Below, one piece after another: positions 31,899-56,052 of a DNA stretch of 64,000 nucleotides. The position numbers were made by a program, and so were the translations under genes. The DNA comes from an uncultured Chlamydiae bacterium. Lineage in GTDB: Bacteria; Chlamydiota; Chlamydiia; Chlamydiales; SM23-39. Location: assembly GCA_963730605.1 (NCBI GenBank), contig CAVSSM010000007.1, positions 1 through 64,000 on the forward strand, read 5' to 3'. Each line of letters starts with the position of its first letter. Position 1 is the first letter of the stretch. Below the pieces are notes generated by a model that searched no databases, was not told where the DNA came from, and saw only the letters and a list, made by a program, of their open reading frames with translations.

Positions 31899-31970
31899 TC
31901 CGGGTTAGCTCAGTGGTAGAGCAGTGGACTGTTAATCCATTGGTCGCAAGTTCGAATCTTGCACCCGGAG
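31899..31970 (+). tRNA. tRNA-Asn(GTT)
   Basis: TCCGGGT/ACCCGGA acceptor stem, AGCTCAGTGGTAGAGC D-arm, CTGTTAA anticodon loop, GTTCGAATC T-loop; CCA not encoded. Confidence 0.97.
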
Positions 31971-31976
31971 AATTTT
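31927..31976 (+). repeat. attL core (50 bp)
   Basis: GACTGTTAATCC...CCCGGAGAATTTT is identical to 56003-56052. Confidence 0.95.
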
Positions 31977-31985
31977 GTCTTTCAG

Positions 31986-32016
31986 GCACTTAAGACACAA
32001 ATCTTAGGTGCTTTTT
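31986..32016 (+). terminator. Intrinsic terminator after tRNA-Asn, supplied by the element
   Basis: GCACTTAAGA / TCTTAGGTGC stem followed by TTTTT. Confidence 0.7.
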
Positions 32017-32279
32017 CGTTTTTAAGACTTGAATTTTCCCCATTTTTTTCCCACCTGCTCACAACAGTACACAACAACCAAAACATCGGTAAGAGTCGTG
32101 TTGAAAACGAGCATTCAAATCAGCTTTTTCATAAGGAAATGTGAAAAAATTGGGGAAAACACATGTTCTCATTCCAAAATTCATTGGGAAAAACTGGTTG
32201 AAGAACATGAGATATGCAATCTCCTGTTGCTTAGTTTTCGGCTCTTACGGTACACTTTTTCAACTACTTAGGGGAGCAT

Positions 32280-33341
32280 ATGGCATCGATCAAACAACGC
32301 AAAACGAAAGACGGTAAAACTCGCTACTACGTACAGGTGAGACTGAAAGGGCAAGATCATCAGTGCGCCAGCTTTGAAAGAATCACGGATGCAAAAAAAT
32401 GGATTCAAAATATGGAGTCAGACATTCGATCTGGGCGCCATTTCAAAACGGCAGAGTCCAAGAAGCATTCTCTTGGCGAGATGATCGACAGGTACATGGA
32501 AAACGTTCTTCCCCTAAAGGAAAAGTGCCTCAAGCGGCAGGGGGCGCAACTCCTCTGGTGGAAAGAGCAACTGGGGAATAAATTGCTTGCGGATATCACT
32601 CCTGGGTTGATTGGTGAGTTCAGGGACAAGCTTCTGAAAGAAACTACCGTACGAAAGAAGCTCCGAGCCCCTGCCACAGTCGTTAGATATTTAGCGGCTC
32701 TGAGCCACGCTTTTTCTATTTGCGTGGATGAATGGGGCTGGTTGGATGATTCTCCGATGAGAAAAGTGACAAAGCCTAAAGAGCCTCGGGGGCGTGTTCG
32801 TTACCTTTCGACAGAGGAAAGAATGAGTTTGCTCAATGCTTGTAAAGAGAGTTCGAATAAATATCTTTACCCCATTGTGGTCATCGCATTGTCAACAGGG
32901 ATGAGATTGTCCGAGATCATGGGCCTATGCTGGTCCGATATCGACTTCGAAAAGGGAAGAATTGTTCTCGAACAGCAAAAAAACGGTGATCGATCTACGA
33001 TTCCTGTTGCCGGATTGGCATTGCAGCTTCTAAAAGAATATAGCCAACGTCGATCAATCGCCAGTTGGCTACTCTTCCCTAGCAAAGAAAATCCCAATAA
33101 GCCAATCGATATACGCTTCCCCTGGGAAAAGGCTTTGAAACTCTCAGGTGTTAAAAATTTTTCATTTCACTGCCTGAGGCACTCGGCGGCTTCTTATCTC
33201 GCGATGAATGGGTGCAGTCTTATTGAAATCCAAAAAATCCTCCGACACAAGGCTATTTCTCAAACAGTCCGATATTCCCACCTGTCAGATGATCACATGG
33301 GAGAAGCTATGGCACGCATGAACGAAAAGATTTTTGGATAA
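32280..33341 (+). CDS. Tyrosine integrase
   Basis: TGMRLSE, HCLRH, LRH and RYSH catalytic residues; adjacent to attL. Confidence 0.95.
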   Translation: MASIKQRKTKDGKTRYYVQVRLKGQDHQCASFERITDAKKWIQNMESDIRSGRHFKTAESKKHSLGEMIDRYMENVLPLKEKCLKRQGAQLLWWKEQLGNKLLADITPGLIGEFRDKLLKETTVRKKLRAPATVVRYLAALSHAFSICVDEWGWLDDSPMRKVTKPKEPRGRVRYLSTEERMSLLNACKESSNKYLYPIVVIALSTGMRLSEIMGLCWSDIDFEKGRIVLEQQKNGDRSTIPVAGLALQLLKEYSQRRSIASWLLFPSKENPNKPIDIRFPWEKALKLSGVKNFSFHCLRHSAASYLAMNGCSLIEIQKILRHKAISQTVRYSHLSDDHMGEAMARMNEKIFG

Positions 33342-34306
33342 CCGATTATGAAATCCGTGATGTCGAAGTTTTTTGTAGAGAAGCAATATGTCCATGATGG
33401 CGGGCTGTTATTGAAATTTTCTGAAGAAGAAATGAGGCAATGGGAAGAGGCGCTTTTACAAGATCGTCTAACTGTTGATGATTATAATATTCTATTACCG
33501 CTTTGGTGTTGGGAATTGGGATTCATTCCATTCATTCTAAATGGCTTAAAAGTATTTAAGATTTCTCTTGGAGACTGCGAGGGGGATGAACCAAATCTTC
33601 CCCCTTCCTCCAATCGCGTTATTCCCGTTTTTCTGAAAGCATGGGAGGCTATCCAACAAGGAAATTTGTTGGTCGAAAAAAGTAATAGATCAGTTCAGAT
33701 ATCCATTTCTGAGGCAATTCATCGACCTCGAAGTGTTGTCTCTAATAAATTAATAAATGAATTTTGTAATAATGCAGGCGATTTTTGCACGGAAATTAAA
33801 TCTTCAAAAGTAATTGAGTGGGCTATTTTAAATAATATTCAGATGGATAAGACGTTGTTGACCTTGCTGTCCCTATACCAGGACCCTCCTATAGAGGAAT
33901 TGTGTGAGGAGACTATAGGCAATCGCACCTATCGGAAAAAAATAATTAAAGAGTCGAAAGTAACAAATCCAGAAAAATATGAAGTAGAATATCTAGCTGC
34001 GGCTCAAATGCTTTGGTCTCAATACAAAAGAAGGAATAAATCACAAATTGCCAGCAACCTGTTAATGCGAGAATTTGGCCCTCCAGGCGGATATAGCAAA
34101 GAGGGTGGCAATATCCTAAAGAAACTGAGTATCATTGATCCTTTTGAGCAAAAAAAAGGGCGAGGACGACGACCAAAACCAGAAGAGAAAGAATTCGCTC
34201 TGCTTCCAATCCCAGGAATTGTCATTCAGGAAGATGGCAATAGGAAAATTGATTTAAAAAGATCAAAAGTTGCATTTTTTGCATTTATTCAGATGCTTAA
34301 AAAAAT

Positions 34307-35427
34307 TATACCGCTCGTGATTCAAAATTTTGATGCGTGAAAATTTCCCTTGACTGCACAATGGCTGCGTGAATTTTTTAACCGACTCAGAACGACAGGA
34401 ACTCAAACTCCGGCACCGGGGGGACCGCGATGGGCGGGTGCGTGATCGAATAAAGGCTGTTCTCCTCTATGATGAGGGGTGGGCTCCCAAAGACATTGCC
34501 AGGGTTCTGTTGATTTCTGACGAAGCAGTTCGTCACCATGTTGACGCATACAAAACGTCGAAAAAATTGCGCCCCGAAAGCGGCGGCTCCGAGGAGAAAC
34601 TATCCCAAACGCAGTCCGAGCAACTTGAGGCTCATCTTCAAGAACACACGTACCTTTACGTCAAGGATATCGTCGCATATGTAGAAGTGACTTTCGGTAT
34701 TGTCTATACCGTCCACGGATTGAGGGATTGGCTGCGAAGACACGGATTTTCCTACAAAAAACCCGCCGTTGTACCCGGGAAAGCCAACAAAGAGCAGCAA
34801 CAAAAGTGGCTCGCCGGATACGAGAAACTCAAGGCAGAACTCCTCGAGGATGAGACTATCTGCTTTATTGACGGCGTTCATCCAACGCACAATGTGCAGC
34901 CTGCTTATGGGTGGATCAAAAAAGGCGTGCGTAAAGAGATCCCAGCAAACACAGGACGTGCCAGGCTCAATCTTTCAGGGAGCATCGATGTCATCACCCA
35001 CAGTGTGGTAATCCAAGAAGACGAGACTTTAAACGCAGAATCGATAATCCGGTTTTTCCAAAAGATCGAAGAATTTTACCCGAGTAAACGAAAGATCCAT
35101 GTATTTTGCGATAATGCACCGTACTATCGGAATAGGGCTGTGAGGCAGTACCTAGAAACGGCAAAAGTTTGTTTGCACTTTTTACCGCCCTATAGCCCCA
35201 ATCTAAACCCGATAGAACGACTGTGGAAATGGATGAAGGAGCGGGTAGTTTACAATACTTATTACGAGTACTTTGAAGACTTTAGAGGAGCGATTCTTGG
35301 TTTTTTCGCTGTATTGGCGACTGTGACCGCGGAGTCAACTTTAGGCCGGGATTTAAGAAGCCGGGTTAGGGATAAATTTAGTCCCTTTCAGGCACCTGCT
35401 GCCAAGTTTTGAATTTCCTTGGGTATA
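34307..35427 (+). mobile_element. IS630-family insertion sequence with TA duplication
   Basis: Ends TATACCGCTCGTGATTCAAAA and TTTTGAATTTCCTTGGGTATA. Confidence 0.93.
34369..35412 (+). CDS. IS630-family transposase (single intact ORF)
   Basis: N-terminal HTH, GFSYKKP, FIDG, CDNAPYY and LPPYSPNLNPIERLW motifs. Confidence 0.95.
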   Translation: MNFLTDSERQELKLRHRGDRDGRVRDRIKAVLLYDEGWAPKDIARVLLISDEAVRHHVDAYKTSKKLRPESGGSEEKLSQTQSEQLEAHLQEHTYLYVKDIVAYVEVTFGIVYTVHGLRDWLRRHGFSYKKPAVVPGKANKEQQQKWLAGYEKLKAELLEDETICFIDGVHPTHNVQPAYGWIKKGVRKEIPANTGRARLNLSGSIDVITHSVVIQEDETLNAESIIRFFQKIEEFYPSKRKIHVFCDNAPYYRNRAVRQYLETAKVCLHFLPPYSPNLNPIERLWKWMKERVVYNTYYEYFEDFRGAILGFFAVLATVTAESTLGRDLRSRVRDKFSPFQAPAAKF

Positions 35428-35755
35428 AGACGGAAATTCAAGCCGATGAAGTGTGGGATCACCAAGTCATTAAATTTTACTTCTCCGATCTTCACCCTCT
35501 CGTCCAAGACATATTCAAAGAGTGGTTGAACGATTTAGTCGTTTTGAAAGAGCCATTCAAATCTAAGCGAACTATCGTGGAAACAAATCGAAGCTAACAG
35601 GGCTTGTTTTGGCTGGATTCCGGGGCCTTTGTTAATTCCTATTTTCAGATTTTACCGTTCTAAAATCAGGAATTTTTGCGATATCACCAGTGCCTTACAC
35701 TGGTGTTGTTGAGTAATGCACAATATTCCAAAAATTTTTAGGAGGGACATGGCTA

Positions 35756-36016
35756 ATGCAAGAGATGAATGATCAACAAAAAGCACTATCCTATAGAGAA
35801 CCGGCGAAATACCTGACTTGTGCTCAGTGGATTGCAAAGTATGGGTTTCCAACGATAGGCGGATTGAGATGGTGGATTTTTAAGGCTAAGAATGACCCTG
35901 CTTTGAGAAAGATTTTCATTCGAGTTCGAAGGCGCGTGTTACTGAAGGAAGATGAAGTTCTTCGATATCTGGAAGAGATGAATGAGAAGGATTTGGCCGG
36001 AGGGAGGAAAAAATGA
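35756..36016 (+). CDS. Small DNA-binding protein (excisionase/AlpA-like)
   Basis: Size, basic wing RVRRRVLL, position before the replication gene. Confidence 0.6.
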   Translation: MQEMNDQQKALSYREPAKYLTCAQWIAKYGFPTIGGLRWWIFKAKNDPALRKIFIRVRRRVLLKEDEVLRYLEEMNEKDLAGGRKK

Positions 36017-38106
36017 CAGCCTCCCCAAAAATCAAACCCACTCCTGACAGAGTGGGTTTAGACAAAACTAGCGAAGTTTTTCCAGCTCATCATGTCGCAT
36101 CACCCATTTGTTTGTCATCATTTTTAGATTCAACTCATTGTAATGAGACAATCAGAATTGAAGGACAGGTAGAAGACACAAATCGCATTGAATCTCTCAT
36201 TACCGATTCCAAAGGATCTGAATGGGTTTCAGAAGCCCCTCCAATAGGTGAGTCGAGACGCAAAATCGAGTTCTTGATTATTCCGAACACTCTGACCGCA
36301 AAGAATCAGTTAGAGGCTCTCGTTAAGACCGAGAAAGAGCGCCTTTCCCTCATTTGGCGAGGAGCAAATAAATTACCAAACGGTAAGTGGCCGAAATCCG
36401 ATACCCCGTATTACAGCGTTTCAAAGGAAAAAAGGGACGATTTATTGCGCACTTTCAAGAAGTTCGAAATTCCACAGGAAGAGATCGAAATCCGTGAAAT
36501 TCCTGTCCCTCCTCCCATCCCAAAACATCTGAAGAAAGCGCAGAAGATACAGGCTCTTGGCGACCAATATCACGAGGCGCTCAAGGTGATTGAAACGAAG
36601 GAGGCGGAGGAGCTGGCAGACACCAAACAGCGGTTCGTCGAAGAAGACATTTCCGCCACTGATTATGCGAGCCGGACAAAAGAAATTCGGGACAGGTACG
36701 CGAAGGAAAAAGAATTTCTCTCTTGCAACGCGAACCGAAACTACCGGGCCGCCGACGTTATTCATGATGATGGGGAAGGGACAAGCAGCGGCGACCAGAC
36801 GGAAGAAGAAGTTGTTAGAGAGTTCAACTCACGATTCTCTATCTTAGAAAACCCTTTCTGCATTCTTGAGTATCACGAGGATACTTTTTCACTCCAAAAA
36901 AAACGGGACTTTAGAGACCGTTACCAGAACCAAAAAATTCAAATCGAGGAAAAAAAATCGAAATGCAAGGCAGATGTTTGGCTTGATTCACTGATCAGGA
37001 ATACGTTTTTTAAAATGGAGTTTCGTCCCGACAAACTTCCAAGAGAATATTATGAGGGAGAGAGAAAATATCTCAACCTCTGGAATGGATTCGGCATAAC
37101 ACCAAAACAGGGGTGCTGCGAGAAAATCAAACGGCACATGCTCGAGGTTATCTGTGGCGGCGTCAAGCGCGATTTCGACTACCTCTGGAAACTGGAAAGC
37201 ACATGGGTTCAGCACCCAGAGAGAAGAACTACCGTTCCGGTTCTGACATCTCCCCATGGCGCAGGAAAAGGGCGGCACGTAGACATGTTCGCGAAAATTT
37301 TCGGAAATGCCTTTTATGAGACAAGCTGTCCTGACCATGTGTTTGGCAACTTTAACGCGGCGGTCGCAAACAAGGTTCTAGTTCACCTGGACGACGCTCT
37401 CTTCGGCGGGGACAAACGGCTCATGGGACGCCTCAAGACCTTTTCCACAGCGGATCAAATCACCATTGAATACAAGGGGAGAGATCCGATTTTAGTACGG
37501 AACCCACGAAAGCTGATAATCTCTTCAAACGAAACCTTCGCAATTCCTATAGAGCCAACAGAAAGAAGATATCTTTTTCTGACAGTAGCCTCACATCGCG
37601 TCGGAGACAAGACGTATTTCGTTGAACTCACACACGAGATTGAAAACGGCGGAGTGGAAGGTTTTCTTTACGAGTTGCTTCAGACAGACTTGACCGAGTT
37701 TAATCCGAGATTTTTGCCGGAAGGCTCCCAAGGCGGTTTTGAGAACAAAATCGAATCCTCAAGCACATTCACGCAATATGTATTCCAGGCACTAAAAGCC
37801 GGAACGTTCTTTTTGCAAGACACCGCCGGACAATGGAAATCTGAGATTCGCACAGATTTGCTTTACGAAAGTGGATACCTTGAGTTTTGCAACCGCCGGA
37901 AAATCCACAGACCTGTTACGGACGAAATGGGAGGGAAAGAGCTCGGATCAATCCTCAAAGGATCAGAATTTAAGCGCGTGCGCCGTCGCGCTGAGGGAAC
38001 TCGATTCTATTCGTACGAGTTCCCGAACCTCGCGTCTTGCCAATCCGCCTTCGCCAAGCACTTCAACACGCATAAAGACATAATTTTCCCAGACGATGAA
38101 GACTAA
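36013..38106 (+). CDS. Replication protein with C-terminal SF3 (DUF5906/primase-associated) helicase
   Basis: LNLWNGF, HGAGKG Walker A, LVHLDD Walker B, IEYKG, IISSN and ERRY motifs. Confidence 0.8.
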   Translation: MTASPKIKPTPDRVGLDKTSEVFPAHHVASPICLSSFLDSTHCNETIRIEGQVEDTNRIESLITDSKGSEWVSEAPPIGESRRKIEFLIIPNTLTAKNQLEALVKTEKERLSLIWRGANKLPNGKWPKSDTPYYSVSKEKRDDLLRTFKKFEIPQEEIEIREIPVPPPIPKHLKKAQKIQALGDQYHEALKVIETKEAEELADTKQRFVEEDISATDYASRTKEIRDRYAKEKEFLSCNANRNYRAADVIHDDGEGTSSGDQTEEEVVREFNSRFSILENPFCILEYHEDTFSLQKKRDFRDRYQNQKIQIEEKKSKCKADVWLDSLIRNTFFKMEFRPDKLPREYYEGERKYLNLWNGFGITPKQGCCEKIKRHMLEVICGGVKRDFDYLWKLESTWVQHPERRTTVPVLTSPHGAGKGRHVDMFAKIFGNAFYETSCPDHVFGNFNAAVANKVLVHLDDALFGGDKRLMGRLKTFSTADQITIEYKGRDPILVRNPRKLIISSNETFAIPIEPTERRYLFLTVASHRVGDKTYFVELTHEIENGGVEGFLYELLQTDLTEFNPRFLPEGSQGGFENKIESSSTFTQYVFQALKAGTFFLQDTAGQWKSEIRTDLLYESGYLEFCNRRKIHRPVTDEMGGKELGSILKGSEFKRVRRRAEGTRFYSYEFPNLASCQSAFAKHFNTHKDIIFPDDED

Positions 38107-38116: not shown

Positions 38117-38406
38117 GCTGTCCCTAGCTACCTAGGGACAGCAGTTTTTGCTAGGGACACTCAAGTTACTAAGCCTATAAGTCTAGCCCTAGTGTCCCTA
38201 GTGTCCCAAGCTAAAACACACGTTCTTGCGTGCATGAAAGATGTGGTGGTGATGGAGTGGGCAAAAAACACAAAGTTTCTATTGCCTCGCCTAAAAGAAT
38301 ATTCATTTTTCCTAGGGACGGGGGGGACACTAGGGACAGAAATTGATAATCAATTGGTTATGAAACAATTTGCTAGGGACAGAGCTAGGGACATGCTAGG
38401 GACAGC
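38117..38406. promoter_or_regulatory. Putative replication origin with CTAGGGAC iterons
   Basis: 7 forward and 2 reverse exact copies plus variants, directly after the helicase gene. Confidence 0.75.
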
Positions 38407-38433: not shown

Positions 38434-40050
38434 ATGATCCACCTCCGCCTCCGCGATTATCAATTCCAATGCCTCGAGGCGATCGCCTCCAATCGCGCCG
38501 CCGGGATCATGCGCCAAATCATCAACTTGCCAACAGCCGCAGGCAAGACAGTGATTTTCGCCTCGCTCATCGCCCAGGCCATCCAGCAAGATCCAACAAT
38601 CCGAGTCCTGATCCTGGCATTTTCGTGCGACCTTCTTAGCCAGGCCCGTGATAAGATCCACATGATTAACTCAAGCCTCGATGTTGGGTTCGTCGACGCC
38701 AGCCATAAGGAATTCGACAGGCAAATCGTGGTCTCCTCCATCCAAAGCGCCCGAATCCCCGGAAACTTGGAGCGATTGCAATCCCAAGGGTTCACGATCT
38801 GCATTGCGGACGAATGCCATCACTTCGCCAGCGATAGCGCACGCCTCGTACTCCGCGAGCTCGGATTCGACGCCGAATGCACTGCACAAGGCCGCTTGTT
38901 AGTCGGATTCTCGGCCACGGCCGCCAGAAACGACGATCGGGGACTCGGAGAGGTGTTCGAGCGTATCGTTTACAGCAAATCAATCAGCGAATTGATTGAC
39001 GGCGGGTATCTTGTGCGGCCGTCCGGCGTCAAGGCAATGACCGATTTGGATCTTGGAAAGGTCCTGTTGGATCAAAGCGGGGACTACTCCGCTGCCAGCC
39101 TGTCTGACGTCATGGACACACCAGAGATGCTAGACCTCGTTGTTCGCTCATTTGAAGAAAAAGGAATGGGCAGGAAGCGGACGATAGCCTTCTGTACTTC
39201 GATTGCCCATTCCGAGCATTTAGCGGCCTGTTTTAGGCGCTCTGGCGTCAACGCCTGCGCGATTCATAGCAACCTGCCAAACAACGAAAGAAAAGCCATC
39301 CTAAAGCGTTTTAGAGACGGCGAGCTGGAAGTTCTGACGAATCCGCTTTTGCTTACGGAAGGGTTCGATTGCCCTGAGATCGACTGCGTCATCGTATCGA
39401 GGCCGACGAAGTCGGTTGGACTGTATACGCAGATGGTTGGGCGTGGGCTTCGTTTGTTCCCCGGCAAGGACGACTGCCTCATCATTGATTTTTGCGATAA
39501 GGCGCACAGTCTTTGCAGCGTGGCAATCCTGACCGGAGACGTTGACCAAGAAAAAATTGAAATCGTCCGGGAAAAACAAATTGAGGAAACTATTGGCAAA
39601 TTGCCTCCTACCCTCAATCAAAAGCTAAAATCCGCTCTTATGGAATTCGACCCAATCGGGAAATCGTTCACCTGGGCGAAAGAATTCGACGGAAGCTATT
39701 CCATGAAAGGCGCCGGGGAAATTTTCCTTAAAATAATTCCTGCTGAGAATTCGAAATACACAGTCATCGTAGAAGGAATTTCCGGTTCGCAAACCCTCTC
39801 GGATGGACTCGATTTTGAATGGGCGTTCAGCACAGCCGAGGATTTTGCCAGGGAAAATAAATCGCGGTTCACGATCTCCGACTTAAACGCGTCTTGGAGA
39901 GATTTGCCGATCAGCGAAAAACAAATGGCCGTGTTCCGATCTTCCGGATTTCGATCTGGGATCGGTGACTTAACGAGGGGCCAGGCATCGCTGATTATCG
40001 GAAGTGGAGTGTTAAAAAAAAGAACTGGAAAGAATCGGAAAAATTGGTAA
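38434..40050 (+). CDS. SF2 DExH helicase (Irc3/RadD-like)
   Basis: LRDYQ, PTAAGKT, DECHH, SAT, TEGFD and QMVGRGLR motifs. Confidence 0.9.
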   Translation: MIHLRLRDYQFQCLEAIASNRAAGIMRQIINLPTAAGKTVIFASLIAQAIQQDPTIRVLILAFSCDLLSQARDKIHMINSSLDVGFVDASHKEFDRQIVVSSIQSARIPGNLERLQSQGFTICIADECHHFASDSARLVLRELGFDAECTAQGRLLVGFSATAARNDDRGLGEVFERIVYSKSISELIDGGYLVRPSGVKAMTDLDLGKVLLDQSGDYSAASLSDVMDTPEMLDLVVRSFEEKGMGRKRTIAFCTSIAHSEHLAACFRRSGVNACAIHSNLPNNERKAILKRFRDGELEVLTNPLLLTEGFDCPEIDCVIVSRPTKSVGLYTQMVGRGLRLFPGKDDCLIIDFCDKAHSLCSVAILTGDVDQEKIEIVREKQIEETIGKLPPTLNQKLKSALMEFDPIGKSFTWAKEFDGSYSMKGAGEIFLKIIPAENSKYTVIVEGISGSQTLSDGLDFEWAFSTAEDFARENKSRFTISDLNASWRDLPISEKQMAVFRSSGFRSGIGDLTRGQASLIIGSGVLKKRTGKNRKNW

Positions 40051-43052: not shown

Positions 43053-43110
43053 TCATACATTAAAAAACTAATTCGTACAAGACGAAAATTCGCAGCCTCT
43101 CTATGATTTC

Positions 43111-44389: not shown

Positions 44390-44409
44390 TCCTATTCCTT
44401 ATATTCTAT

Positions 44410-44438: not shown

Positions 44439-44488
44439 TGCTTTGTTGTAAAATTCATGTCGTTTTAATTGGCATAACTGGCTTGTTG

Positions 44489-48900: not shown

Positions 48901-50664
48901 AAGCTTGAGGACTTTGGGATTAAGCTCGCTGAAATCATGCCTGATTTCTTCTTGCGCTTCGGTCCAGGCACTTATCCTGCCGGGGAAAACATCATCACCG
49001 TATTCCATGAAGGCAAGCCGAGCTACTTTGAAGTTTCCCCAGAGATTTACCAGATGTGGACGAAGGGGATCGCTCCTTACACCGCCGACATCATCACCAA
49101 AATCCTCCGCATTCCAGCCAGGGCATTGCGCGCCGGTGCCATTCTCAACCCAAAATTCATGATGAAAAACATCGTGCGCGATACATGGGGCGGCTTTCTC
49201 TTCACCAAGTATGGGAAGAACATCAAGGACCCCCCTGCGCTGTTCCTGGACACTCTTTACGCCCCGCTTGCTCAATTGGGCATCGCAGCCAAACAAGCCA
49301 AGCTCTACGTCGAATGGATGAAATCGGGCGGCGGCATGTCTACCATGCAGTCGATGGATCGGGAAGCGATTATCAAGAAGCTCAAAGAAGTGCGAGACGG
49401 GTTGCAACCGCACCAAGTGATCCGGTGGCTCAGAAAGGTCGCCGAAATCTCGGAAGAGGCTAATCGGCTTGCTGAGTTCGGCCGCGCTTTGAATGTAGAG
49501 GGAGAGACGCGCTTGGGTAAAGAAATCGCCGCTTTCGCTTCCCGAGACCTGAGCATTGATTTCGCTAAGATGGGTCTGCAAACCAAGGCGTTAAACCAGA
49601 TCATCCCTTTCTGGAATGCAACTGTACAAGGCGGAGACAAGCTCATCAGAACGCTCGCCAGCGACCAGGATCGAGCCGAATTCATTGCCAGGGCAGTTGG
49701 GTTCATCCTCATCCCATCGCTAATCCTCGCCTGGATGAACCAGGATGATGAACGGGTCAAAGAATTCTACGAAGAAGAGAAAGACTTCAACTTCATCTCC
49801 TTCATCGGCGATACTGCTATCAAGATCCCCGTCCCCTTCGAAACCGGAGTCCTCGTCCACGGCCTGACGCAGCGTATGTATAACCACTTCATCAAGAAAG
49901 ATCCCCATGCCTTCGAAGGGTTCATAGGCAGCATTGCCTCTGCCATGCTCCCGAACTTCGTGCCCGCTTTCGCTAATCCGTTCGTAGAAGCGGCGGCGAA
50001 CCGGAATTTCTTTACCGGCGCGCCTATCATTCCTCGGGCTAAAGAAGGGCTAGTAGCCAAGTACCAATACAAGAATAACAGCTCGGCGACCGCCAGGCTT
50101 CTTGGCCGCGCCATGACCTACATGATGGGCCAGGACACGCGATCGAAAGCCGCCTCTCCTGCCGTCATCGACCACTTCATAAATTCGTGGGGAGCGGGCC
50201 TTGGACGGCTTGTCGTCTCTCTTGCCGATGCTGGATTGGAAGCCGCTGGACTGAGCGATAAGATCCCAGGGCCGGAGAAGACCATTACAGAAAGACTGGG
50301 TCTCGATGCGTTCGTTTCCCGGTACCCAAGAGCGTCTGCTAGGAACATCGAGAAGTTCTACGACATGTATGCCGATGCCACAGCTCGGCGCCGCTCCATT
50401 AAACAGGCTGAGAAGGTCGAGCTTGAGGAGCCGGAAGCGATCGAAGAGGCTTATGAGCGGGTCGAATCGCTTTACGACTACCCGACCTTACAGCGAGCCT
50501 ACAAGGCCATGCAGAAGAACCAGCGGGCGATCAACGAGATTTGGCAGAACCCCGATATCGACGAGAAGACCAAGAGGACCATGATCGACGATCTTTACTT
50601 GCAGCAAATCCAGTTCGCCAAAGAAGCCGTTGAGGATATCGAGAAATATCGCCTTGCTGGCTAA
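45952..50664 (+). CDS. Large polyvalent protein with HExxH metallopeptidase-like motif and LPD38-like C-terminus
   Basis: AAHEIGH..EGFAEF; DFAKMG..NQIIPFWNA..QG..K, IKIPVPFE.G and PFVE...NRNFFTG.PI segments. Confidence 0.75.
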   Translation: MATAPDFFSDLSQKPEANKFFSDIPQQAPVVKPKTSPTMQMAPVNFFADLEGQPSLQDQQAKPPGFLDRLGQAFAYQMQSGGPAGAPSLSPDQAKKVAAEAGTQIAIGEAFAPLKILATASKYAPGFLRSLVNISQAGTTGAAIPAVESLTEKGELPSKGELLKHGAIWAGIDAAIQLTHAGAEFGVIVNKLKAETGLPTREVLNRLWQGAKKHYGWKHPPTDPETGAAIIAPEQIEAMADLAVKEPETIIEATVKEKGPSPIPEPKAAQEPKVRDFENIDDVRAMLSDTDKKIKALEALGPRANANDERLLNTLRKTRPGLVEVLKELETRGKPSYLEPEPEKSVTTEAPKPVSGYVRKPEPKTVPEKIAHLSQKVKESEAHVENMREAIDQQKQLIEDLKKRESQLSPISYLHPTKEQRDTELRKAKERGEIKASIMGAKDNLEQKRDGLSSEKDYLAQLKAGLRDLKEKKEASRYEVPLGRGGALEKKVRIRPAEKELAEKQPSIMGKKQAIARSEILNLFRKAFTDPIRLGKFGQRASGIHKLWSRVTRLLKDNDIETAAHEIGHNLHTTLYGGDAKTHVEQRENINAALRPYLDELKPLALYEPFGMEGFAEFTRLYVTNPDTALKLAPKFYAKFDADLEAQYPELRNALLEARDYYEQYLQGTPESRIRAQTDYGDDSSKLDNLVDWVKSSLDMDKLKTNFLDDVFPAKRLVAEAFGISLSEVENLKDPRNLYRSLRVLKGAIGRADVFLTHETFDAKTLKRKGRGLRQILRKLKTPEEYKEFNDYLIARRVMEKGKQNIETGINYGDAIVTERNLAPKYKKLAVLLDHYNDALLTYARDGGVLSNEQYAAIKKANMMYVPFQRVIEKPAGVAAIGGRLQAGKPIKRMKGSTRDIIAPIESVIKNTYAIIVNAEKNLSGQALAELAKMRGIGRLVEYVPAPIELKAKISREEALKQMEALLKQSGWITEGGGGLGEEKLEDFGIKLAEIMPDFFLRFGPGTYPAGENIITVFHEGKPSYFEVSPEIYQMWTKGIAPYTADIITKILRIPARALRAGAILNPKFMMKNIVRDTWGGFLFTKYGKNIKDPPALFLDTLYAPLAQLGIAAKQAKLYVEWMKSGGGMSTMQSMDREAIIKKLKEVRDGLQPHQVIRWLRKVAEISEEANRLAEFGRALNVEGETRLGKEIAAFASRDLSIDFAKMGLQTKALNQIIPFWNATVQGGDKLIRTLASDQDRAEFIARAVGFILIPSLILAWMNQDDERVKEFYEEEKDFNFISFIGDTAIKIPVPFETGVLVHGLTQRMYNHFIKKDPHAFEGFIGSIASAMLPNFVPAFANPFVEAAANRNFFTGAPIIPRAKEGLVAKYQYKNNSSATARLLGRAMTYMMGQDTRSKAASPAVIDHFINSWGAGLGRLVVSLADAGLEAAGLSDKIPGPEKTITERLGLDAFVSRYPRASARNIEKFYDMYADATARRRSIKQAEKVELEEPEAIEEAYERVESLYDYPTLQRAYKAMQKNQRAINEIWQNPDIDEKTKRTMIDDLYLQQIQFAKEAVEDIEKYRLAG

Positions 50665-50696: not shown

Positions 50697-51395
50697 TCAA
50701 GAGCTGGGTTTTAAATGTAGAGAGAGTCTTTGATCAATCTGGTTGCGGAGCGCTTTGACGAGTTCCTCCGCAAACCAATCAGGTCGATTATAGTGAGGGC
50801 CAATGCTCGCCAGGCAGATGGTGGTTGCCTGGGAAGGTGGAACATCACAACTGCTTGCCAAAAATCGTCCCGCAAAGCGCAACAGTTCTGTCACGGCTGC
50901 GGCTTTATTTGCATCGCTCAAATTTGATAGCTTGTATCCAGAGATGAAATGAGCCGCTAAAGCTCGTGTGTCTTCGAGCTCTGCCTTATAATCGCTCATG
51001 TATTTAGCTGGATCGGATGTGGTCATCAAACCTTGAGGCCTCCAGGAGGCATCAACGTCATTTTTAAGCTGATCAACTCCGTAACAAAGATCCGCGTCAA
51101 TTTGTTTGAGAGCTTGTTCTGCGCGTTCATAATGTTCATCTGTCCATCCAGAGGGGAGATCGATAGCTTTGTCAAGAGAGTATTGGACGTCTTGGGACGT
51201 TATTGACTGCTGTTTAAATGTCGACACCTGAGATTGCCATTTACGGAAGATATTGTCGGCATCACGTTTGAGCTGTTCTTTTTTGCGGAAACGTACCTGT
51301 TTTTCTACATTTGATATCTGGGTCATAACGAATTTTCTCCATGGTTTACTAACTTTTGAAGAAATACCATAACCAAGAAAGCTCGGAATTGTCAA
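50697..51395 (-). CDS. Hypothetical protein
   Basis: 232-aa ORF; likely start at MTQIS. Confidence 0.6.
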   Translation of the reverse strand: MTIPSFLGYGISSKVSKPWRKFVMTQISNVEKQVRFRKKEQLKRDADNIFRKWQSQVSTFKQQSITSQDVQYSLDKAIDLPSGWTDEHYERAEQALKQIDADLCYGVDQLKNDVDASWRPQGLMTTSDPAKYMSDYKAELEDTRALAAHFISGYKLSNLSDANKAAAVTELLRFAGRFLASSCDVPPSQATTICLASIGPHYNRPDWFAEELVKALRNQIDQRLSLHLKPSS

Positions 51396-51398: not shown

Positions 51399-51611
51399 TT
51401 ACGTAAGAGAGAAGAAGAGTATCGCATCTACAAGCAGCCGTAGTCCAATCGTCACCAAACAAAGGCCTGTCACTCTTCTCCATGAGAAAAAAGGCATAAG
51501 CTTTTTGAAATCAAACATGTGTATCCCGCTGCACAAGCATAATGATCCTAAAAATATCCTCACCAGCAAGAGGATTATCATTCCTAAAGGACTGAGCATT
51601 ATTTCTTTCAT
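51399..51611 (-). CDS. Small hypothetical membrane protein
   Basis: Two hydrophobic segments. Confidence 0.5.
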   Translation of the reverse strand: MKEIMLSPLGMIILLLVRIFLGSLCLCSGIHMFDFKKLMPFFSWRRVTGLCLVTIGLRLLVDAILFFSLT

Positions 51612-51619
51612 TGAACCGC

Positions 51620-51991
51620 CTAGCTTGATTTTTTCTTGTTTTTGAATACGTCAATCACCCCACAACCAACGTAGCACAGGAGTCTCAGGAGCTCTGCGTC
51701 GACTTTATCGCAGGCATTCATGCATTTAATGAAACCATCCCGCTGCCAATCAGTCATGCCAGGAACAGGTTTGCCCATGCTTGGCATGGATTTGCCTTCT
51801 ACAGCAGGAACATTAGATAGCGCATACAAAGCAACGAGCGGCACTGATAGTTTTGAAATAGCGCTGGCTACTTGAAGCAATGCGGGCGCTGCTAAGGGCC
51901 CAAATACTCCGGGGCGAACTCCGTATTGAGAGATTGCTAAGGAACTCATGAGATCCTCAAGGTTGAAGGGTTTTAGAAAAAGGGAAGACAC
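51620..51991 (-). CDS. Small secreted-type protein with twin CX3C motif
   Basis: LSNVPAVEG followed by CMNAC-X11-CYVGC. Confidence 0.65.
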   Translation of the reverse strand: MSSLFLKPFNLEDLMSSLAISQYGVRPGVFGPLAAPALLQVASAISKLSVPLVALYALSNVPAVEGKSMPSMGKPVPGMTDWQRDGFIKCMNACDKVDAELLRLLCYVGCGVIDVFKNKKKSS

Positions 51992-52083
51992 TAAGACACA
52001 AAAAATTTAGACGCAAGCCTAAATAAATAGTTTACAAACGTAGTATTTTTTAATTTAGTTTGAAAAATTCTGCATAGTTCTTA

Positions 52084-52698
52084 TTGTTGATGAATTTTCA
52101 AAAGCCAAGGAGGTTTTTTATGGCACTTCAAGCAGTAGGGACGAGCAACTTTCTTTCTGCATCCCTCGGAAATAACCCAATCCAAACACTCGGAATGCTC
52201 AGCATTACAATGCTGGCTGTAAACACTTTGTCAAATTTGCCAATGGCAAAAGCAGATGAAGGCGGATTCCCTTGGAGAGAATATTGCGAGGTTCAGTGCA
52301 CGCCAATTACTGGAGAAAAAACTGTCACACATCAAATCTGCGTCGAGACATGTCTAGTGGGAAAAGAAATGATTAAAACCACAACAGAACAGGCATTGAA
52401 GAATGGAAAATGGGAAGTTGTAAAACAACTCGGGAAAGTGGTGACGGCGATAAAACCAATTGGAGATGGCATAGATTGCTACTCAATTTGTAATAATCCA
52501 CTTTCAGCTGGTAGTAGGATGGCTGGAGATCTATTCATGGCTGGCTATAGTCTATGGAGCAAAAATTTACCTGATGCTGGTAGTTACGGTAAAAGTGCTG
52601 CTGCTAAAGCAGGGTGTGTTGCTCTTCTAATTACGCCAGCCGGAATTCCTGGTTGCCTGGCGTGTTGCGCAGGAACAAAGTACATCGGGGTTAATTAA
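52084..52698 (+). CDS. Cys-rich secreted-type protein with several CX3C motifs
   Basis: LSNLPMAKA followed by CEVQC-X13-CVETC, CYSIC and CLACC; likely start at MALQA after GGAGG. Confidence 0.7.
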   Translation: MLMNFQKPRRFFMALQAVGTSNFLSASLGNNPIQTLGMLSITMLAVNTLSNLPMAKADEGGFPWREYCEVQCTPITGEKTVTHQICVETCLVGKEMIKTTTEQALKNGKWEVVKQLGKVVTAIKPIGDGIDCYSICNNPLSAGSRMAGDLFMAGYSLWSKNLPDAGSYGKSAAAKAGCVALLITPAGIPGCLACCAGTKYIGVN

Positions 52699-52715
52699 AA
52701 AAGGAAATGTAATTT

Positions 52716-53000
52716 ATGAAAACAGCCAATTCCATTCAGATAAGAGAACAAACGCACCACTCTAGTAATCAGATTAGTAAATTTTTAGAAAAACACCCCA
52801 TTACAAGAAAGCTTATTCTTTGTGGGTCAATTATAATTACTGGTGGATTTATCATAGCAAAACAGATCTCGTCGAGAACATTCACACCGAGCTTTACACT
52901 TCAAGAAGCAGTTGCTTTGACAGTTATGAATATCTTCTCACAGGAAATGTTGCGTTACGATCGCTCATTGGAAAACAAAAAAATCGAGCGCATCTCCTAA
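52716..53000 (+). CDS. Small hypothetical membrane protein
   Basis: 94-aa ORF with a hydrophobic segment, downstream of the previous gene. Confidence 0.5.
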   Translation: MKTANSIQIREQTHHSSNQISKFLEKHPITRKLILCGSIIITGGFIIAKQISSRTFTPSFTLQEAVALTVMNIFSQEMLRYDRSLENKKIERIS

Positions 53001-53462
53001 TGGGGCGCTTTTCTCTTAACGAACTGCAAGCCCAGAAAATCGATCGACTAGCCTGACGGCTACCCTTCATATGCCTCGACTTGCGATAATAGATTCTAGA
53101 CCCAACCGACGAGGCGACCGAAGAGCGGTATCATGACGCGATAGATGCGATTAGGGGGAAGGATTAGCCTTGCGACGAACGAGCAGGAATGAATCGTTTT
53201 TCTGTGGGAGCCGGAAGCTGATGAGGCTCCAATGAAGTATTTCAATCATAACCTGCTATAAAATCATTATCTCATCCCTACTCCGGGCTTCTGCTTATAG
53301 GGCGCTAGGGCGAGGTTTTTCGAAGAATGCTTCTCTAATGCAAGTAAAATTTCTGATATAAATAGTTATTAATTAAACCATTCTTTTATTTCTGATTTGT
53401 GTATTATCTGCTCTGATTTTATATAAGTTGTTAGAAACTTTTCAAAACAAAATTGGAGATTT

Positions 53463-54708
53463 ATGCAAGCAGTATCAAAAGTAGAAATCTTAGATGTTCA
53501 ACCAAACATTCTCACGCAACCGATCAAAGCGACAGACGTTAATTCAACGGTAGGGAACATCAATGGCGGTTCCCAAAAAGCGACATTCCGCAAATTCGCT
53601 GCGGAACAGGCTCTTCAGCCTCAAGTTCAATTTGAGCAAAGCTTAACGGATCGTTTTAATTCAGGTTTGTTACAGAACGATATCCTAGTTAAGAAGATTA
53701 ACCCACATACCATGATCCATAAAGCAATCTTGGAAAATTCCCCTGTAGTAATCAGGAACCTATCCTCCAATTCTTCACGATCCCTTTACGGCACGCTTTT
53801 GGGCGCTTTTCGCGCCTCCGCCCTCGTAAAGATCACCGTCCCGATATTTACTTCGGGCGGTCGACGACGAAAAATCGCCTCAAAATCGACCATAAATGAA
53901 TCATTAAGAATTGGAGGATAGGTTCAGGTTTCTCCTAGCTCAAGGCGTGAGTGTCGATTATCCGGATTCTGATGGGATGTCACCACTTACTGTTGCACTA
54001 CTGAATCGATGCGACTATGCAGTTGATGTGTTGTTGGAGCATGGTGCCAATGTCAATCCAAAGATTCAGTGGAATGGAATGACTCTGCTGGAGATCGCAT
54101 TTTTAATGAAAGACCATAAATCAGTTCTCGCATTGCTGAAGCATGGTGCTGATATTAAGATAAATGAGATTGAACAAAGTGCTTTAGTTCAGGCAATCTG
54201 TTTAGCTCATGATTTCAAAACTAGATCTGAATGGGAAAAGATTGTTGAATTATTGATAGAAAAAGGATCAGATATTCATTCAAACAATTCCACTAGCAGT
54301 CCATTTTACGAATCCATTTTTCTTGCCCAACAAGGAGATTTCTTTGTTCTTGAACTCTTGCTTCGCAAGGGGGCCGATGTAAATATGAAGGTAGGTGGGG
54401 GTATTCCTTCTCTTTTTCTAGCTCTCAAATGGGGATCTCTAAATCCAAATTGGTGTATCCCTTTAATTGAATTGTTTATTGAAAATGGGGTTGATGTGAA
54501 TCAAGAGCATCAGAGCATGGGTACGCTTCTCCATTTAGCGATATCGGATTCTCGGTTTGATTTAGTGAAATTATTTATTGAAAATGGTGCCGATTTAAAT
54601 AAAAAATCGAAGGTGCAGGGTGAAATTCAATCTCCTTTAACCTTGGCTCTTAAACTACATGAGGTAGAAATCGTGCAGTACCTCGTGCAACATGGCGCAA
54701 AAGCCTAA
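53463..54708 (+). pseudogene. Ankyrin-repeat protein split by MITE-B
   Basis: Removing the MITE plus AG restores VVIRFLLAQGVSVDYPD, matching the paralog at 54775. Confidence 0.88.
53756..53925. mobile_element. MITE-B copy 2
   Basis: Same 170-bp element as 9677-9846 in opposite orientation; AG/AG flanks. Confidence 0.92.
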
Positions 54709-54774
54709 TCAAGCAAGCGGGGCCGTTTCGTGCGTTTCCGCTTCTATTTATTTTTAAAATAAAAATGGAGACTT

Positions 54775-55731
54775 ATGCAAACGCAAAGAATAGAGAAAAT
54801 AGATGTTCGAGATAACATTGTTCAACCACTCTTTTTGGTTCAGGGAGAAAAAGCCGCTGCCATTAAAATCGACGGTTCCCCAAAAGCTGCATTCCGCAAA
54901 TTTGCTGCTGAAAATACTCCTCAGCCCAAAGCTCAATTTGAGCAGAGCTTAACGGATCGGTTCAATTCGGGTTCCTTACAAGAAGACGTTCGCTTAAAGA
55001 AGATCAATCCTCATACCCTGATTCACAAAGCGATTTTGGAGAATAATCCAGCCGTAATACGTTTCCTTTTGGCCCAAGGGGTAAGCGTCGATTATCCAGA
55101 TCAAAATGGAATGTCGCCATTGACGATCGCGATCTTGAATTGTTGCGATTATGCTGTGGAAATATTGCTTAAAAATGGCGCCAACACGAACCCAAAGGTT
55201 AAATGGAATGACATGGGTTTGCTGGAAACAGCCATATTCATGAAAGATCACAAAACTGCGAAATCGCTGATTGATCATGGTGTTAATTTGAATGAGAAAG
55301 CTGGCAATAAAGGTTCGCTTGAATTAGCGATCCACACAAGCCAAACATCTCAAGAGTATATTGAAATTGCTCTTTTAATGATCGAAAAGGGAGCAAATAT
55401 TCATTCAAACGAACCAGAAAACTGTCCTTTATTTGAAACCATCCTTGCTTATAATGGAAATGTAGCAATTCTAAATTCTTTAATTAAAAAAGGTGTCGAT
55501 TTAAATATGGAATTCAAGAAAAGCGCTAATGGCGGACAAACCGCCCTCACTGTAGCCATTGCAATAGGTGGAAGTTTGGATGTTATTGATCTTCTTGTTC
55601 AATCAGGTGCAGATGTAAACAGAAAAACACCATACCTTGGCATGGGTAATAAATCTCCTCTGCAATTAGCTATGCAAACACAGCAACCAGAAATCGTTCA
55701 ATATCTCTTGCAACACGGCGCAAAAGCCTAA
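54775..55731 (+). CDS. Ankyrin-repeat protein
   Basis: Repeated G.SPL..A......V..LL..GA.VN units. Confidence 0.9.
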   Translation: MQTQRIEKIDVRDNIVQPLFLVQGEKAAAIKIDGSPKAAFRKFAAENTPQPKAQFEQSLTDRFNSGSLQEDVRLKKINPHTLIHKAILENNPAVIRFLLAQGVSVDYPDQNGMSPLTIAILNCCDYAVEILLKNGANTNPKVKWNDMGLLETAIFMKDHKTAKSLIDHGVNLNEKAGNKGSLELAIHTSQTSQEYIEIALLMIEKGANIHSNEPENCPLFETILAYNGNVAILNSLIKKGVDLNMEFKKSANGGQTALTVAIAIGGSLDVIDLLVQSGADVNRKTPYLGMGNKSPLQLAMQTQQPEIVQYLLQHGAKA

Positions 55732-56002
55732 CCTTCACTATAAAAGGGCGGCTTCAGAACCTGCCGCTCCCTTTTCGATGGCACAATTTTGACACACTGG
55801 CTTGCAAAATCTTACGGTTTCTCCGGGTATGCTATGAAAAAGGCTTCCTTTCTCTGCCTTGAGCAATTCCCCAAAATTTCCCCACTGGCTCACAAAAGTG
55901 ACCAATAATCAACAATTTCCATCAACTGTGAAAAAGTCCTTAACAATTTAATTCTATTGTTGTTAAGCTTTGATCATCGTTGTGGAAAGTGGAAATGAAT
56001 GA

Positions 56003-56052
56003 GACTGTTAATCCATTGGTCGCAAGTTCGAATCTTGCACCCGGAGAATTTT
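56003..56052 (+). repeat. attR core (50-bp duplication of the tRNA-Asn 3' part)
   Basis: Identical to 31927-31976. Confidence 0.95.

Follow-up and report, generated by a model that had tools for sequence, protein, structure and literature searches.

A capsid-less tRNA-Asn island with a complete terminase pair and predicted ejection proteins, a probable phage satellite from a chlamydial genome

The 24-kb island lying between two att sites in the analysed stretch of DNA (64,000 nucleotides, hereafter the window) is probably a PICI-like satellite, one that would use a terminase of its own to fill the heads of a helper phage with its DNA and would supply its own DNA-entry proteins. Since other genomes and circular contigs show the same layout, the island is likely to be a parasite borrowing the shell of a little-known tailed chlamydial phage. 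The original prediction, an element with its own motor and DNA-entry proteins that takes heads and tails from a helper, is supported, with packaging by the helper as its presumed part. Three amendments are needed: insertions break two of the accessory genes, the ejection pair is optional, and for satellites with DNA-transfer-like genes EcCIMP1 provides a published precedent. The host of the element is probably chlamydial, and the support for this part of the prediction is indirect only.

Boundaries and overall make-up of the island

31899-31970, + strand: tRNA-Asn(GTT), integration target (ARAGORN)
31927-31976, + strand: attL core, 50 bp, 3' part of tRNA-Asn, identical to attR
56003-56052, + strand: attR core, 50 bp, identical to attL

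The att pair was found intact as predicted: attL and attR agree at 50 of 50 positions, and the 50-bp sequence occurs only twice in the whole genome, one copy covering the 3' part of tRNA-Asn(GTT). A portal, capsid, tail or lysis gene had been reported as unrecognizable between the att sites, and comparison of 29 ORFs with Pfam and PHROGs gave no match to a head, portal or tail gene or to a convincing lysis gene, the sole lysis row being a holin match (E 0.009) on a HigB-like gene. By sequence comparison no ORF of the window resembles a capsid or portal protein, the second finding that had been named beforehand as refuting the prediction, and those left without a family placement are all too short for a portal of ~700 aa. 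The portal-scaffold-capsid-adaptor-nozzle block that follows terL in prophages of the 36-44-kb podophages was not detected in the window. The core genes are open; the claim that all ORFs are apparently intact failed for two accessory genes, one broken by an IS630 element and the other by a MITE.

Integration and replication arm

32280-33341, + strand: tyrosine integrase, 353 aa (PF00589 E 3.9e-33, phrog_1)
33348-34340, + strand: gene after int with no assigned function, 330 aa as read, broken near its 3' end by IS630
34306-35429, + strand: IS630-family element (DDE_3 E 3e-34)
35756-36016, + strand: 86-aa AlpA/Xis-like regulator, predicted from position (no family match)
36013-38106, + strand: SF3-type replication helicase (primase-helicase family), 697 aa (DUF5906 E 2e-17; phrog_1156 E 1.7e-24)
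38119-38404, no strand: predicted origin, a cluster of nine CTAGGGAC iterons (seven on the + strand, two on the - strand)
38434-40050, + strand: SF2 helicase (ResIII/RadD-like), 538 aa (PF04851, PF00271, phrog_16)

The integrase, the SF3 helicase followed by iterons and the SF2 helicase (ResIII/Helicase_C matches) were all confirmed by family matches. The integrase matches that of the tRNA-Asn island of genome G088 at 65%. The 330-aa gene after it has no match in Pfam, PHROG, NCBIfam or PADLOC and finds only hypotheticals in the Atlas; in relatives this position is held by unrelated genes of 290-390 aa. The IS630 element has 13 further full-length genomic copies at 99.8-100% identity, and its insertion is recent.

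The xis-like assignment of the 86-aa gene rests on position, with 30-40% homologues at the same place in G228, G033 and G194 and no real family match; the excisionase-family match (HTH_17, phrog_66) belongs to a different gene at 42840-43052. In the 697-aa protein the helicase part was matched, and a primase domain was not among the matches. The nine copies of the iteron compare with an expectation for a 7-mer of 0.02 per 340 bp, and a 113-aa ORF spanning them is probably not a gene. In G228, G044 and G402-G404 the iteron position is filled by other repeat units.

Terminase pair

40243-40668, + strand: terminase small subunit (TerS), P22 gp3 type (PF16677, 31.7 bits, cut-off 29.4)
40655-42208, + strand: terminase large subunit (TerL), 517 aa (phrog_2 E 5e-29, phrog_2472; T4 gp17 match E 4e-5)

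Both predicted terminase subunits were thus recovered by family models. TerS has 141 aa if read from the ATG at 40243, or 146 aa from the TTG at 40228, and matches phage TerS at 40%. TerL matches the phage contigs found through it at 50-60%. In the alignment K54, R56, Q57, E148, E180-S181-T182-A183 and D320 are invariant and D461 nearly so; as aligned, the window TerL keeps the ATPase and nuclease residues as the phage versions do. Its closest relative (78%) is encoded on contig C63 of G375, where no portal was found in the 4.9 kb after terL, nor elsewhere in that genome.

In the proposed dN/dS check on terL and the large gene, terL is under strong purifying selection among portal-less relatives (dN/dS 0.055-0.088 in five unsaturated pairs), and one pair gave 0.17 for EJ3 and 0.21 for EJ2, the ejection genes described below. 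The comparisons involving terL and EJ3 of the window are all saturated at synonymous sites, so that they do not reveal selection on the window copy after its capture.

Predicted ejection proteins

45263-45952, + strand: predicted ejection protein EJ2 (second of the trio), 229 aa, analogous by position to T7 gp15 / P22 gp20
45952-50664, + strand: 1570-aa predicted large ejection protein EJ3 (LPD38 domain, PF18857 E 2e-38)

The two ORFs overlap by one base, in line with the coupling claimed for them. They correspond to the second and third genes of a predicted ejection trio lying between the nozzle and fibre genes of the 36-44-kb podophages, and the original guess at their function is backed by this homology and by the arrangement of the genes in entire podophage genomes. 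An HMM of seven complete-phage EJ2 proteins matched the 229-aa protein (E 5e-13), which aligns with EJ2 of phage L198 at 27.5% over 225 aa. The 1570-aa protein has a variable N-terminus, a zincin-like HEIGH...EGFAE motif and one hydrophobic helix near aa 1241; H565, E566, H569, E613 and E617 are invariant in the alignment, and aa 500-1570 align with EJ3 of whole podophages at 60-71%. Homologues of EJ3 follow internal-virion genes in phages Lederberg and VvAW1, and an LPD38 protein is reported to have been detected in phi24B virions (10.64898/2026.04.10.717836). The predicted ejection proteins had no sequence match in PDB. The HMM of EJ1, the first gene of the trio, had no match in the window, i.e. 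two of the three ejection genes are kept. On the strength of these comparisons the two products are predicted to act as DNA-injection proteins, putative analogues of T7 gp15/gp16 and P22 gp20/gp16. In the wider family of terS-terL islands the pair is an optional module, present in 5 of 400 genomes.

Cargo

42202-45046, no strand: cargo between terL and the ejection genes (GC 0.42 vs 0.51-0.54 for terL and the ejection genes)
50697-51395, - strand: 232-aa protein without assignment, candidate satellite function (50% homologue in G250)
51399-55731, no strand: right-arm cargo of small membrane- or secreted-looking proteins without assignment and two ankyrin-repeat genes
53756-53925: MITE, 170 bp, interrupting the first ankyrin gene (13 further genomic copies)

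About 8 kb of the island is cargo that the original prediction had left unmentioned, comprising a HigBA-like pair, a resolvase, a lipoprotein and ankyrins. The segment after terL encodes a 213-aa protein without assignment, the HTH_17 excisionase-like protein, a CC0125-family lipoprotein, the HigBA-like toxin-antitoxin pair and a serine resolvase. The homologue of the 232-aa protein sits directly upstream of terS in the G250 island.

Related islands and podophages

TerL was found in 40 of 401 genomes of the phylum and the phrog_156 portal in 14 of 401. The two sets overlap in six genomes, in which TerL is distant (32-45%), and a phrog_156 portal was found in none of the 23 other genomes with a near-full TerL at 47-78%. 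Roughly 6% of the sampled genomes have a near-full island-type terL. Twelve att-bounded terL islands were delimited; they occupy six types of tRNA gene and span 10-30 kb, apart from a 39-kb tandem. A set of 220 island ORFs gave no head or tail match in PHROGs except one NUDIX domain. PHROGs matched the portal and capsid of the control and missed its scaffold, adaptor, nozzle and ejection genes, so that a small divergent structural gene may have gone unnoticed.

A clean att-bounded unit, 17.8 kb in G228, reads int-alpA-pri-SF2-terS-terL-EJ2-EJ3, and in G228, G095 and G401 EJ2 begins only 71-110 bp after terL. Four records from IMG/VR, of 19.1, 19.5, 23.0 and 30.2 kb and ending in terminal repeats, carry terS-terL-EJ2-EJ3 and have no portal or capsid, for both of which a 39-kb control was positive. 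Two circular contigs have attP-like sites; in G404, 46 of 46 bp of the 3' part of tRNA-Phe lie before the integrase, and G402 has a part of tRNA-Tyr. The circular contigs demonstrate episomes, not encapsidation. Some relatives are decayed: terL and EJ3 are split in G323, G088 retains a terL remnant and in L277 terL is absent between terS and EJ2. The three closest EJ3 relatives of the window (P0002-P0004) are on contigs of 21, 24 and 37 kb.

Related uncultured podophages of 36-44 kb (G405, L192-L202 and a prophage in G285) have a phrog_156 portal and a phrog_1357-type capsid; Lederberg, VvAW1 and phi24B are more distant. The G285 prophage is whole and lies among host genes in a chromosome of the phylum. 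TerS, TerL, EJ2 and EJ3 of these podophages are homologous to those of the element and stand in the same order, whereas the element has no detectable portal, scaffold, capsid, adaptor, nozzle, EJ1 or fibre gene.

This order minus the head-tail block could also be left by deletion, i.e. a temperate podophage at tRNA-Asn could have lost its portal-to-EJ1 block, perhaps via the resolvase-bearing cargo between terL and EJ2. The low-GC cargo with its resolvase lies at the gap, and the IS630 and MITE insertions indicate some decay. Plain deletion of phage head genes does occur in the phylum: contig C25 of G124 is a head-less phage derivative in which terL is joined to nozzle, EJ1-3 and fibre. In the trees, TerL clades free of portals, with 8, 13 and 4 members, are supported at SH-aLRT 98-100; the TerL and EJ3 of the window fall outside the main satellite clades, TerL grouping near phage TerLs (SH-aLRT 84.7). 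However, of the window genes only terS, terL, the resolvase, EJ2 and EJ3 matched any of 32 phage loci, and no homologue of the integrase, SF3, SF2 or AlpA-like gene of the left arm was found in these loci, most of which are partial and one of which is the whole 39-kb G405. The closest TerL relative, in G375, likewise yielded no portal, the same gap is seen in G228, G095, G323 and four circles from other clades, and the selection on portal-less terL also argues against a remnant. Portal and capsid genes after terL in homologous elements had been named beforehand as the mark of a deleted prophage, and none were found in the 23 close-TerL genomes, the 12 islands and the 4 circles. Deletion is therefore largely ruled out at the family level and is unlikely for the island itself.

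Other explanations

It is less probable still that the island is a self-replicating island or plasmid that keeps its terminase and ejection genes mainly for anti-phage interference, as a competing motor and as mismatched ejection proteins spoiling helper particles, with little packaging of itself. The loss of EJ1 from the trio and the plasmid-like, ParA-bearing circles of G401 and G403 would fit such a role, and PLE satellites are described as disturbing tail assembly (PMC12987554). Decoys, however, would need neither the conserved ATPase and nuclease residues of TerL nor a full-length EJ3 with HEXXH, and islands spread over many tRNA types and across families with no conjugation gene seen need another transfer route. 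Interference is compatible with the satellite reading and does not exclude it.

Least credible is that the island belongs to a gene-transfer agent or injection device domesticated by the host, the structural genes of which would lie elsewhere in the chromosome: split GTA loci are known and the genome is only 83% complete, but the intact att pair, the integrase, the own origin and the patchy presence at different tRNAs speak against it, as do the negative searches for a family portal or capsid in the window genome and the 23 close-TerL genomes and for a phrog_156 portal in the complete-looking relatives of 1-4 contigs (G228, G044, G147, G238 and G253).

Proposed mode of transfer

In the favoured satellite reading, infection by a helper would lead to excision of the element, and the excised circle would replicate from the iterons. 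TerS would recognise a pac site of the element, and its TerL would dock on the helper portal and fill normal heads with a headful concatemer. Such heads would be built by a podophage with a P22-type portal and would hold about 1.6 copies of the 24-kb element per ~40-kb head; a normal head size is assumed because no capsid-size gene was recognised. EJ2 and EJ3, loaded into these heads, may replace or join the helper copies and form a channel across the cell envelope; EJ1 and the tail and lysis functions would be borrowed. A whole motor of its own would free the element from matching the TerS-TerL interface of the helper. The search for a helper prophage in the window genome (83% complete) found none: it has a single terL, no phrog_156 portal and no phrog_1357 capsid.

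We lean, by a modest margin over doubt, towards a broader view in which an undescribed family of satellites in Chlamydiota takes nothing but the shell from tailed podophages; it would bring a complete motor and, in several lineages independently, ejection proteins of its own to build chimeric virions. The linked 36-44-kb podophages would then infect these obligate intracellular bacteria as tailed phages and could carry the cargo of the island, ankyrin proteins included, by transduction.

Comparison with known systems

PMC5010888 names Chlamydiamicrovirus as the isolated chlamydial phages; it also mentions, without explaining it, a terL carried by a tRNA-Thr island of Protochlamydia. In the accessible text of PMC10085698, 'Chlamyd' has no occurrence and the host phylum is not mentioned. 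A satellite with a motor without head plus ejection genes was not found reported in the open full-text literature searched.

Like Gram-negative PICIs and SaPIs, the element is tRNA-integrated, with integrase, a putative AlpA-like regulator, primase/helicase, origin and TerS and no portal, tail or lysis gene; unlike PICIs it has TerL and ejection genes and no recognised capsid-morphogenesis gene, and measures 24 kb against a PICI median of 9.5 kb (PMC10085698). From the PICI core set of SatelliteFinder the window carries the integrase with att sites at a chromosomal target, a primase-replicase with origin (the DUF5906/phrog_1156 helicase and nine iterons) and a small terminase (PF16677 above cut-off); for the AlpA/MerR/Stl regulator of the set, the 86-aa gene is a candidate by position, and no window sequence matched the capsid-morphogenesis gene; the core set excludes TerL and other phage structural genes, whereas the window carries TerL and two predicted virion-internal proteins. 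TerL is listed in PMC10085698 as a component specific to cf-PICIs, which share with the element TerS and TerL of their own on a PICI-like left arm. In contrast, cf-PICIs also bring a capsid, portal, protease and head-tail connectors of their own and take just the tails from the helper (PMC10085698). No capsid, portal, protease, head-tail connector or adaptor was found in the window, the 220 island ORFs or the four circles, the element being a motor without a head.

Partial precedents in print are EcCIMP1 of E. coli MP1 and PLE. The former, a PICI mobilised by podophage Kapi1, has helper DNA-transfer-like genes downstream of its primase and no capsid gene, but no terminase gene that could be identified; what its DNA-transfer-like genes do is left unsettled in that report, and the likeness to the element is one of description (PMC11773190). 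The PLE of Vibrio cholerae brings its own DNA-delivery part (tape measure, chaperone and baseplate hub) into chimeric particles, as was shown experimentally. PLE differs in having a myophage helper and contributing tail parts rather than podophage ejection proteins, and the available text describes no TerL of its own (PMC12987554). Marine VEIMEs are likewise integrative and capsid-less, are packaged as concatemers in full-size heads and in some cases have TerS, but their TerL is presumed to be helper-derived and ejection genes are not mentioned in the available text (PMC9618062).

Described satellites either borrow TerL (PICI, VEIME) or encode it alongside a capsid and portal of their own (cf-PICI), and a motor without a head combined with ejection proteins represents a different division of labour. 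It is open to test, with a foreign TerL on the helper portal and ejection proteins swapped into the head of another phage, and the candidate helper genomes and islands named here make tailed-phage infection and transduction in environmental chlamydiae directly examinable.

Anatomy and integrity of the element

The att-bounded element at tRNA-Asn has the following features, from left to right:

31899-31970, tRNA-Asn gene, the integration target
left arm, tyrosine integrase, 86-aa gene, 697-aa SF3-type helicase, iterons, SF2 helicase
onward, P22-gp3-type TerS, TerL, 3 kb of low-GC cargo, coupled genes for 229-aa and 1570-aa proteins
right end, about 5 kb of further cargo including two ankyrin genes

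The last 50 bp of the tRNA-Asn gene are exactly duplicated at 56003-56052, and a third copy is absent from the genome. The iteron CTAGGGAC occurs nine times in the element against 0.02 expected. The att pair, the integrase, the SF3 helicase with its iterons, the SF2 helicase, TerS, TerL and the 229/1570-aa pair of the original prediction were all recovered, and sequence comparison revealed that TerL and its phage relatives have their ATPase and nuclease residues in common. The claim that every ORF is intact had to be abandoned: the gene following int is broken by a recent IS630 and the first ankyrin gene by a MITE (53756-53925; 170 bp with terminal inverted repeats, 13 more near-identical copies in the genome). 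The predicted lack of head, portal and tail genes between the att sites held in sequence searches, in which no element ORF matched such a family; an ORF long enough for the ~700-aa portal of the podophage family with 36-44-kb genomes was absent among the unassigned ORFs. ESM Atlas assigned the 330-aa and 232-aa window proteins to hypothetical clusters only, with low recognition scores. The 232-aa protein (50697-51395) shows a 50% match to L126:2828-3538, near the terS of another island, with dN/dS of 0.39, and is a candidate interference or regulatory gene.

Other loci in the window and its genome

Just outside attR, at 56209-57126 and 57054-57539, a DDE-transposase remnant with 42-bp inverted repeats overlaps a 161-aa gene, homologues of which occur in other islands of the same genome. 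A short tandem-repeat array at 8106-9314 generates repetitive open frames on both strands. Between 12166 and 16700 host genes, which we take to be aspS-like and pnp-like, seem split into several ORFs by frameshifts or assembly errors.

Elsewhere in the genome, a lone terS (C11:94229-94714, 47% to that of the window) and a toxin-antitoxin-like pair directly follow tRNA-Glu/Lys; this locus is what is left of a second terS-terL family island. At least five further related integrase islands were found (C9:239915, C1:6732-7796, C2:278879, C12:26492 and C7:195000-218000); four adjoin tRNA genes, several have helicase/primase-like genes without terL, and some are decayed.

The 229/1570-aa pair

The original prediction regarded the coupled pair as putative ejection proteins, a role that is well supported by homology and by gene position in phage genomes. 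The homologue of the 1570-aa protein in Pelagibacter phage Lederberg is the last gene of the internal-virion block before the fibre, and in Vibrio phage VvAW1 it is the large gene two places after an annotated DNA-ejection gene. Closer relatives (60-71% over residues 500-1570) are encoded by uncultured 36-44-kb phages with the gene order portal, scaffold, capsid, adaptor, nozzle, EJ1, EJ2, EJ3, fibre, EJ1-EJ3 being the predicted ejection trio. The 1570-aa protein, equated with EJ3, contains an LPD38 domain, and its zincin-like motif HEIGH...EGFAE is invariant. The 229-aa protein matches a profile built on seven EJ2 proteins of these phages (E 5e-13). An EJ1 profile had no match in the window, and PDB sequence searches with EJ3 and with TerS gave none.

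Recurrence of the terminase and ejection genes

Among the phylum genomes, islands with terminase and EJ2 occur in G228, G095 and G323 besides the window. A further EJ2 profile, built in part from these very genes, matched in 7 of 400 genomes. Five of the matches are islands (the window, G228, G095, G323 and G088), one is the whole prophage of G285 and one a head-less phage derivative in G124. The G228 island is a 17.8-kb att-bounded unit with 110 bp between terL and the EJ2 start; the corresponding gap in G095 is 88 bp, and its third gene is different (767 aa). In G124 (C25, L371, 2743-15717) terL overlaps the nozzle gene and is followed by EJ1-EJ3 and fibre-like genes, the portal-to-adaptor block being missing; the candidate readings are a deletion remnant and a tail-carrying satellite.

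In IMG/VR, four records of 19.1-30.2 kb that have terminal repeats contain terS, terL, EJ2 and EJ3, and searches of them for portal and capsid found none, the 39-kb whole-phage control (G405) being positive. In two of them the 3' part of a tRNA precedes the integrase, as expected of excised circles, one of these parts being 46/46 identical to tRNA-Phe of the window's own genome; the other two bear ParA and are plasmid-like. IMG/VR scans with single EJ3 or P0003 queries gave no match. The scan with a TerL alignment returned at least 80 loci, mostly other phages, and 6 of the best 80 were examined in full. Seven loci whose surroundings were examined and are portal-less or island-like cluster in the EJ3 tree (FastTree support 0.79), together with contigs mostly of 14-28 kb and one of 42 kb; one of the seven is a fragment in which no terL was seen. 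The window stands on a separate branch with contigs of 21 and 24 kb. Its integrase, SF3 and SF2 helicases and 86-aa gene had no homologue in 32 phage loci, mostly partial, with G405 whole.

Two portal-less variants (L266, 3975-9312; L328, 9535-13541) seemingly have all three ejection genes, EJ1 being clear in L266 and weak in L328. The terS-terL element L280 bears ParA and is devoid of ejection genes.

Part of the stretch was present in soil DNA, in five runs that belong to two studies, with no RNA run among those listed; one of the runs may be the source sample of the window. Four runs examined gave near-identical short contigs across the element at a depth of 1-6. One X2 contig joins the att core to the 5' half of tRNA-Asn, compatible with either attL or an unoccupied site. 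Among the contigs listed no attP joint occurred, and the 20 kb compared with reads included attR only.

TerL islands in the phylum

The window TerL was matched in 40 of 401 phylum genomes. Flanks were examined in 35 of the 39 others, and 23 of those genomes encode a near-full TerL (47-78% identity), usually in the layout tRNA, int, 290-390-aa unknown, small regulator, primase/helicase of several types, terS, terL and variable cargo. Att repeats of 25-75 bp at Ser, Tyr, Met, Leu, Lys/Phe or Thr tRNAs delimit twelve of these islands, which measure 10-30 kb, plus one 39-kb tandem. The cargo of five loci in relatives (L116, L115, L132, L121, L112) presumably includes an ABC transporter accompanied by acetyltransferases, operons of a biotin-like and a potassium-transport-like type, a set resembling type I R-M and a TerY-P-like triad.

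The PHROG scan covered 220 of the 251 larger island ORFs, the other 31 being judged by eye host-like cargo or fragments; ORFs below 90 aa and those already identified as integrase, terminase, IS, resolvase, toxin-antitoxin or ankyrin genes were also set aside. It gave no head or tail match except one NUDIX domain. Since control portal and capsid genes were matched and control tail and ejection genes were missed, the islands were also compared by BLAST with phage structural genes, again with no match.

According to the original prediction, portal and capsid genes consistently following terL in homologous elements would make this element a deleted prophage. The phylum portal search matched 14 of 401 genomes and none of the 23 with near-full TerL; a deleted prophage is considered unlikely, though G124 is a real deletion derivative and several relatives are decaying, both of which count against a satellite. 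The dN/dS of terL among portal-less relatives is 0.055-0.088 (five unsaturated pairs); four more pairs, the window's included, are saturated. The TerL tree contains three portal-free clades, of 8, 13 and 4 members, with SH-aLRT values of 98-100; the window and G375:C63 form a branch of their own, and four islands fall among phages. A single origin of portal-less TerL was rejected marginally (p-AU 0.048; quick 48-row tree, with six short or outgroup rows omitted). Because this value is borderline, several captures of TerL by portal-less elements are likely but not firm.

Host and candidate helper

The assignment of the host to Chlamydiota is supported indirectly by an Hc1 (chlamydial histone-like) family match in the genome (E 2e-15; also 1 of 14 controls), a record named Parachlamydiales, L277, in which an island of this kind occurs, and a terL island at tRNA-Thr published for Protochlamydia (PMC5010888, accessible part). 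The OmcB family was not found in this genome, and the names of PurH homologues pointed to no phylum.

Tblastn and family searches of the 83%-complete genome revealed a single terL and neither the phrog_156 portal nor the phrog_1357 capsid of the podophage family, the capsid family having matched in G405, the positive control being external to this search. A candidate helper type is the whole ~35-kb podophage prophage that host genes flank on a contig of 137 kb (G285:C1, ~44000-78000; L169, L165, L166), with terS, split terL, portal, scaffold, capsid, adaptor, nozzle, three ejection genes and fibre-like genes; the integrase queries used had no match in it. Phage-like contigs with portal and capsid-like genes are also putatively placed by binning in phylum genomes (G139:C101, G149:C102, G252:C19, G303:C10, G217:C16 and G106:C22).

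Proposed mode of transfer

The element is quite probably a phage satellite. Helper infection would trigger excision, and the excised circle would replicate from the iterons. The island TerS and TerL would cut the concatemer and pump it into helper proheads by headful packaging. The island EJ2 and EJ3, which would either replace the helper copies in the particle or join them, would convey the DNA through the envelope, while EJ1, tail and lysis would come from the helper. In PLE the satellite tape measure enters chimeric tails and is required for transfer (PMC12987554, accessible part), a precedent suggesting that the helper's own EJ2 and EJ3 may be disfavoured or blocked. Against a satellite also count the failure to find a helper in the 83%-complete genome, the saturated window terL pairs and the lack of junction evidence in reads.

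A module serving interference only is very improbable. PADLOC on the window returned generic helicase and ankyrin matches only. That the element is part of a GTA is hardly to be expected.

Comparison with known systems

The island would work like PICIs and VEIMEs (PMC10085698, PMC9618062). As far as the accessible text describes these groups, it differs from PICIs in possessing TerL and virion genes and from cf-PICIs in the absence of head genes (PMC10085698). EcCIMP1 combines DNA-transfer-like genes with a podophage helper but has no terminase (PMC11773190), and the Pseudomonas AH14b satellite, unlike the island, is also described without one (PMC4936722). Phage terminases are recorded on chlamydial plasmids (PMC7846284). 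The open text of the literature, supplements aside, yielded no report of a head-less satellite with TerL and ejection genes, or of tailed-phage satellites in chlamydiae. What is new is the union of terminase and ejection genes in one module, the circular forms of this module and a concrete candidate helper family.
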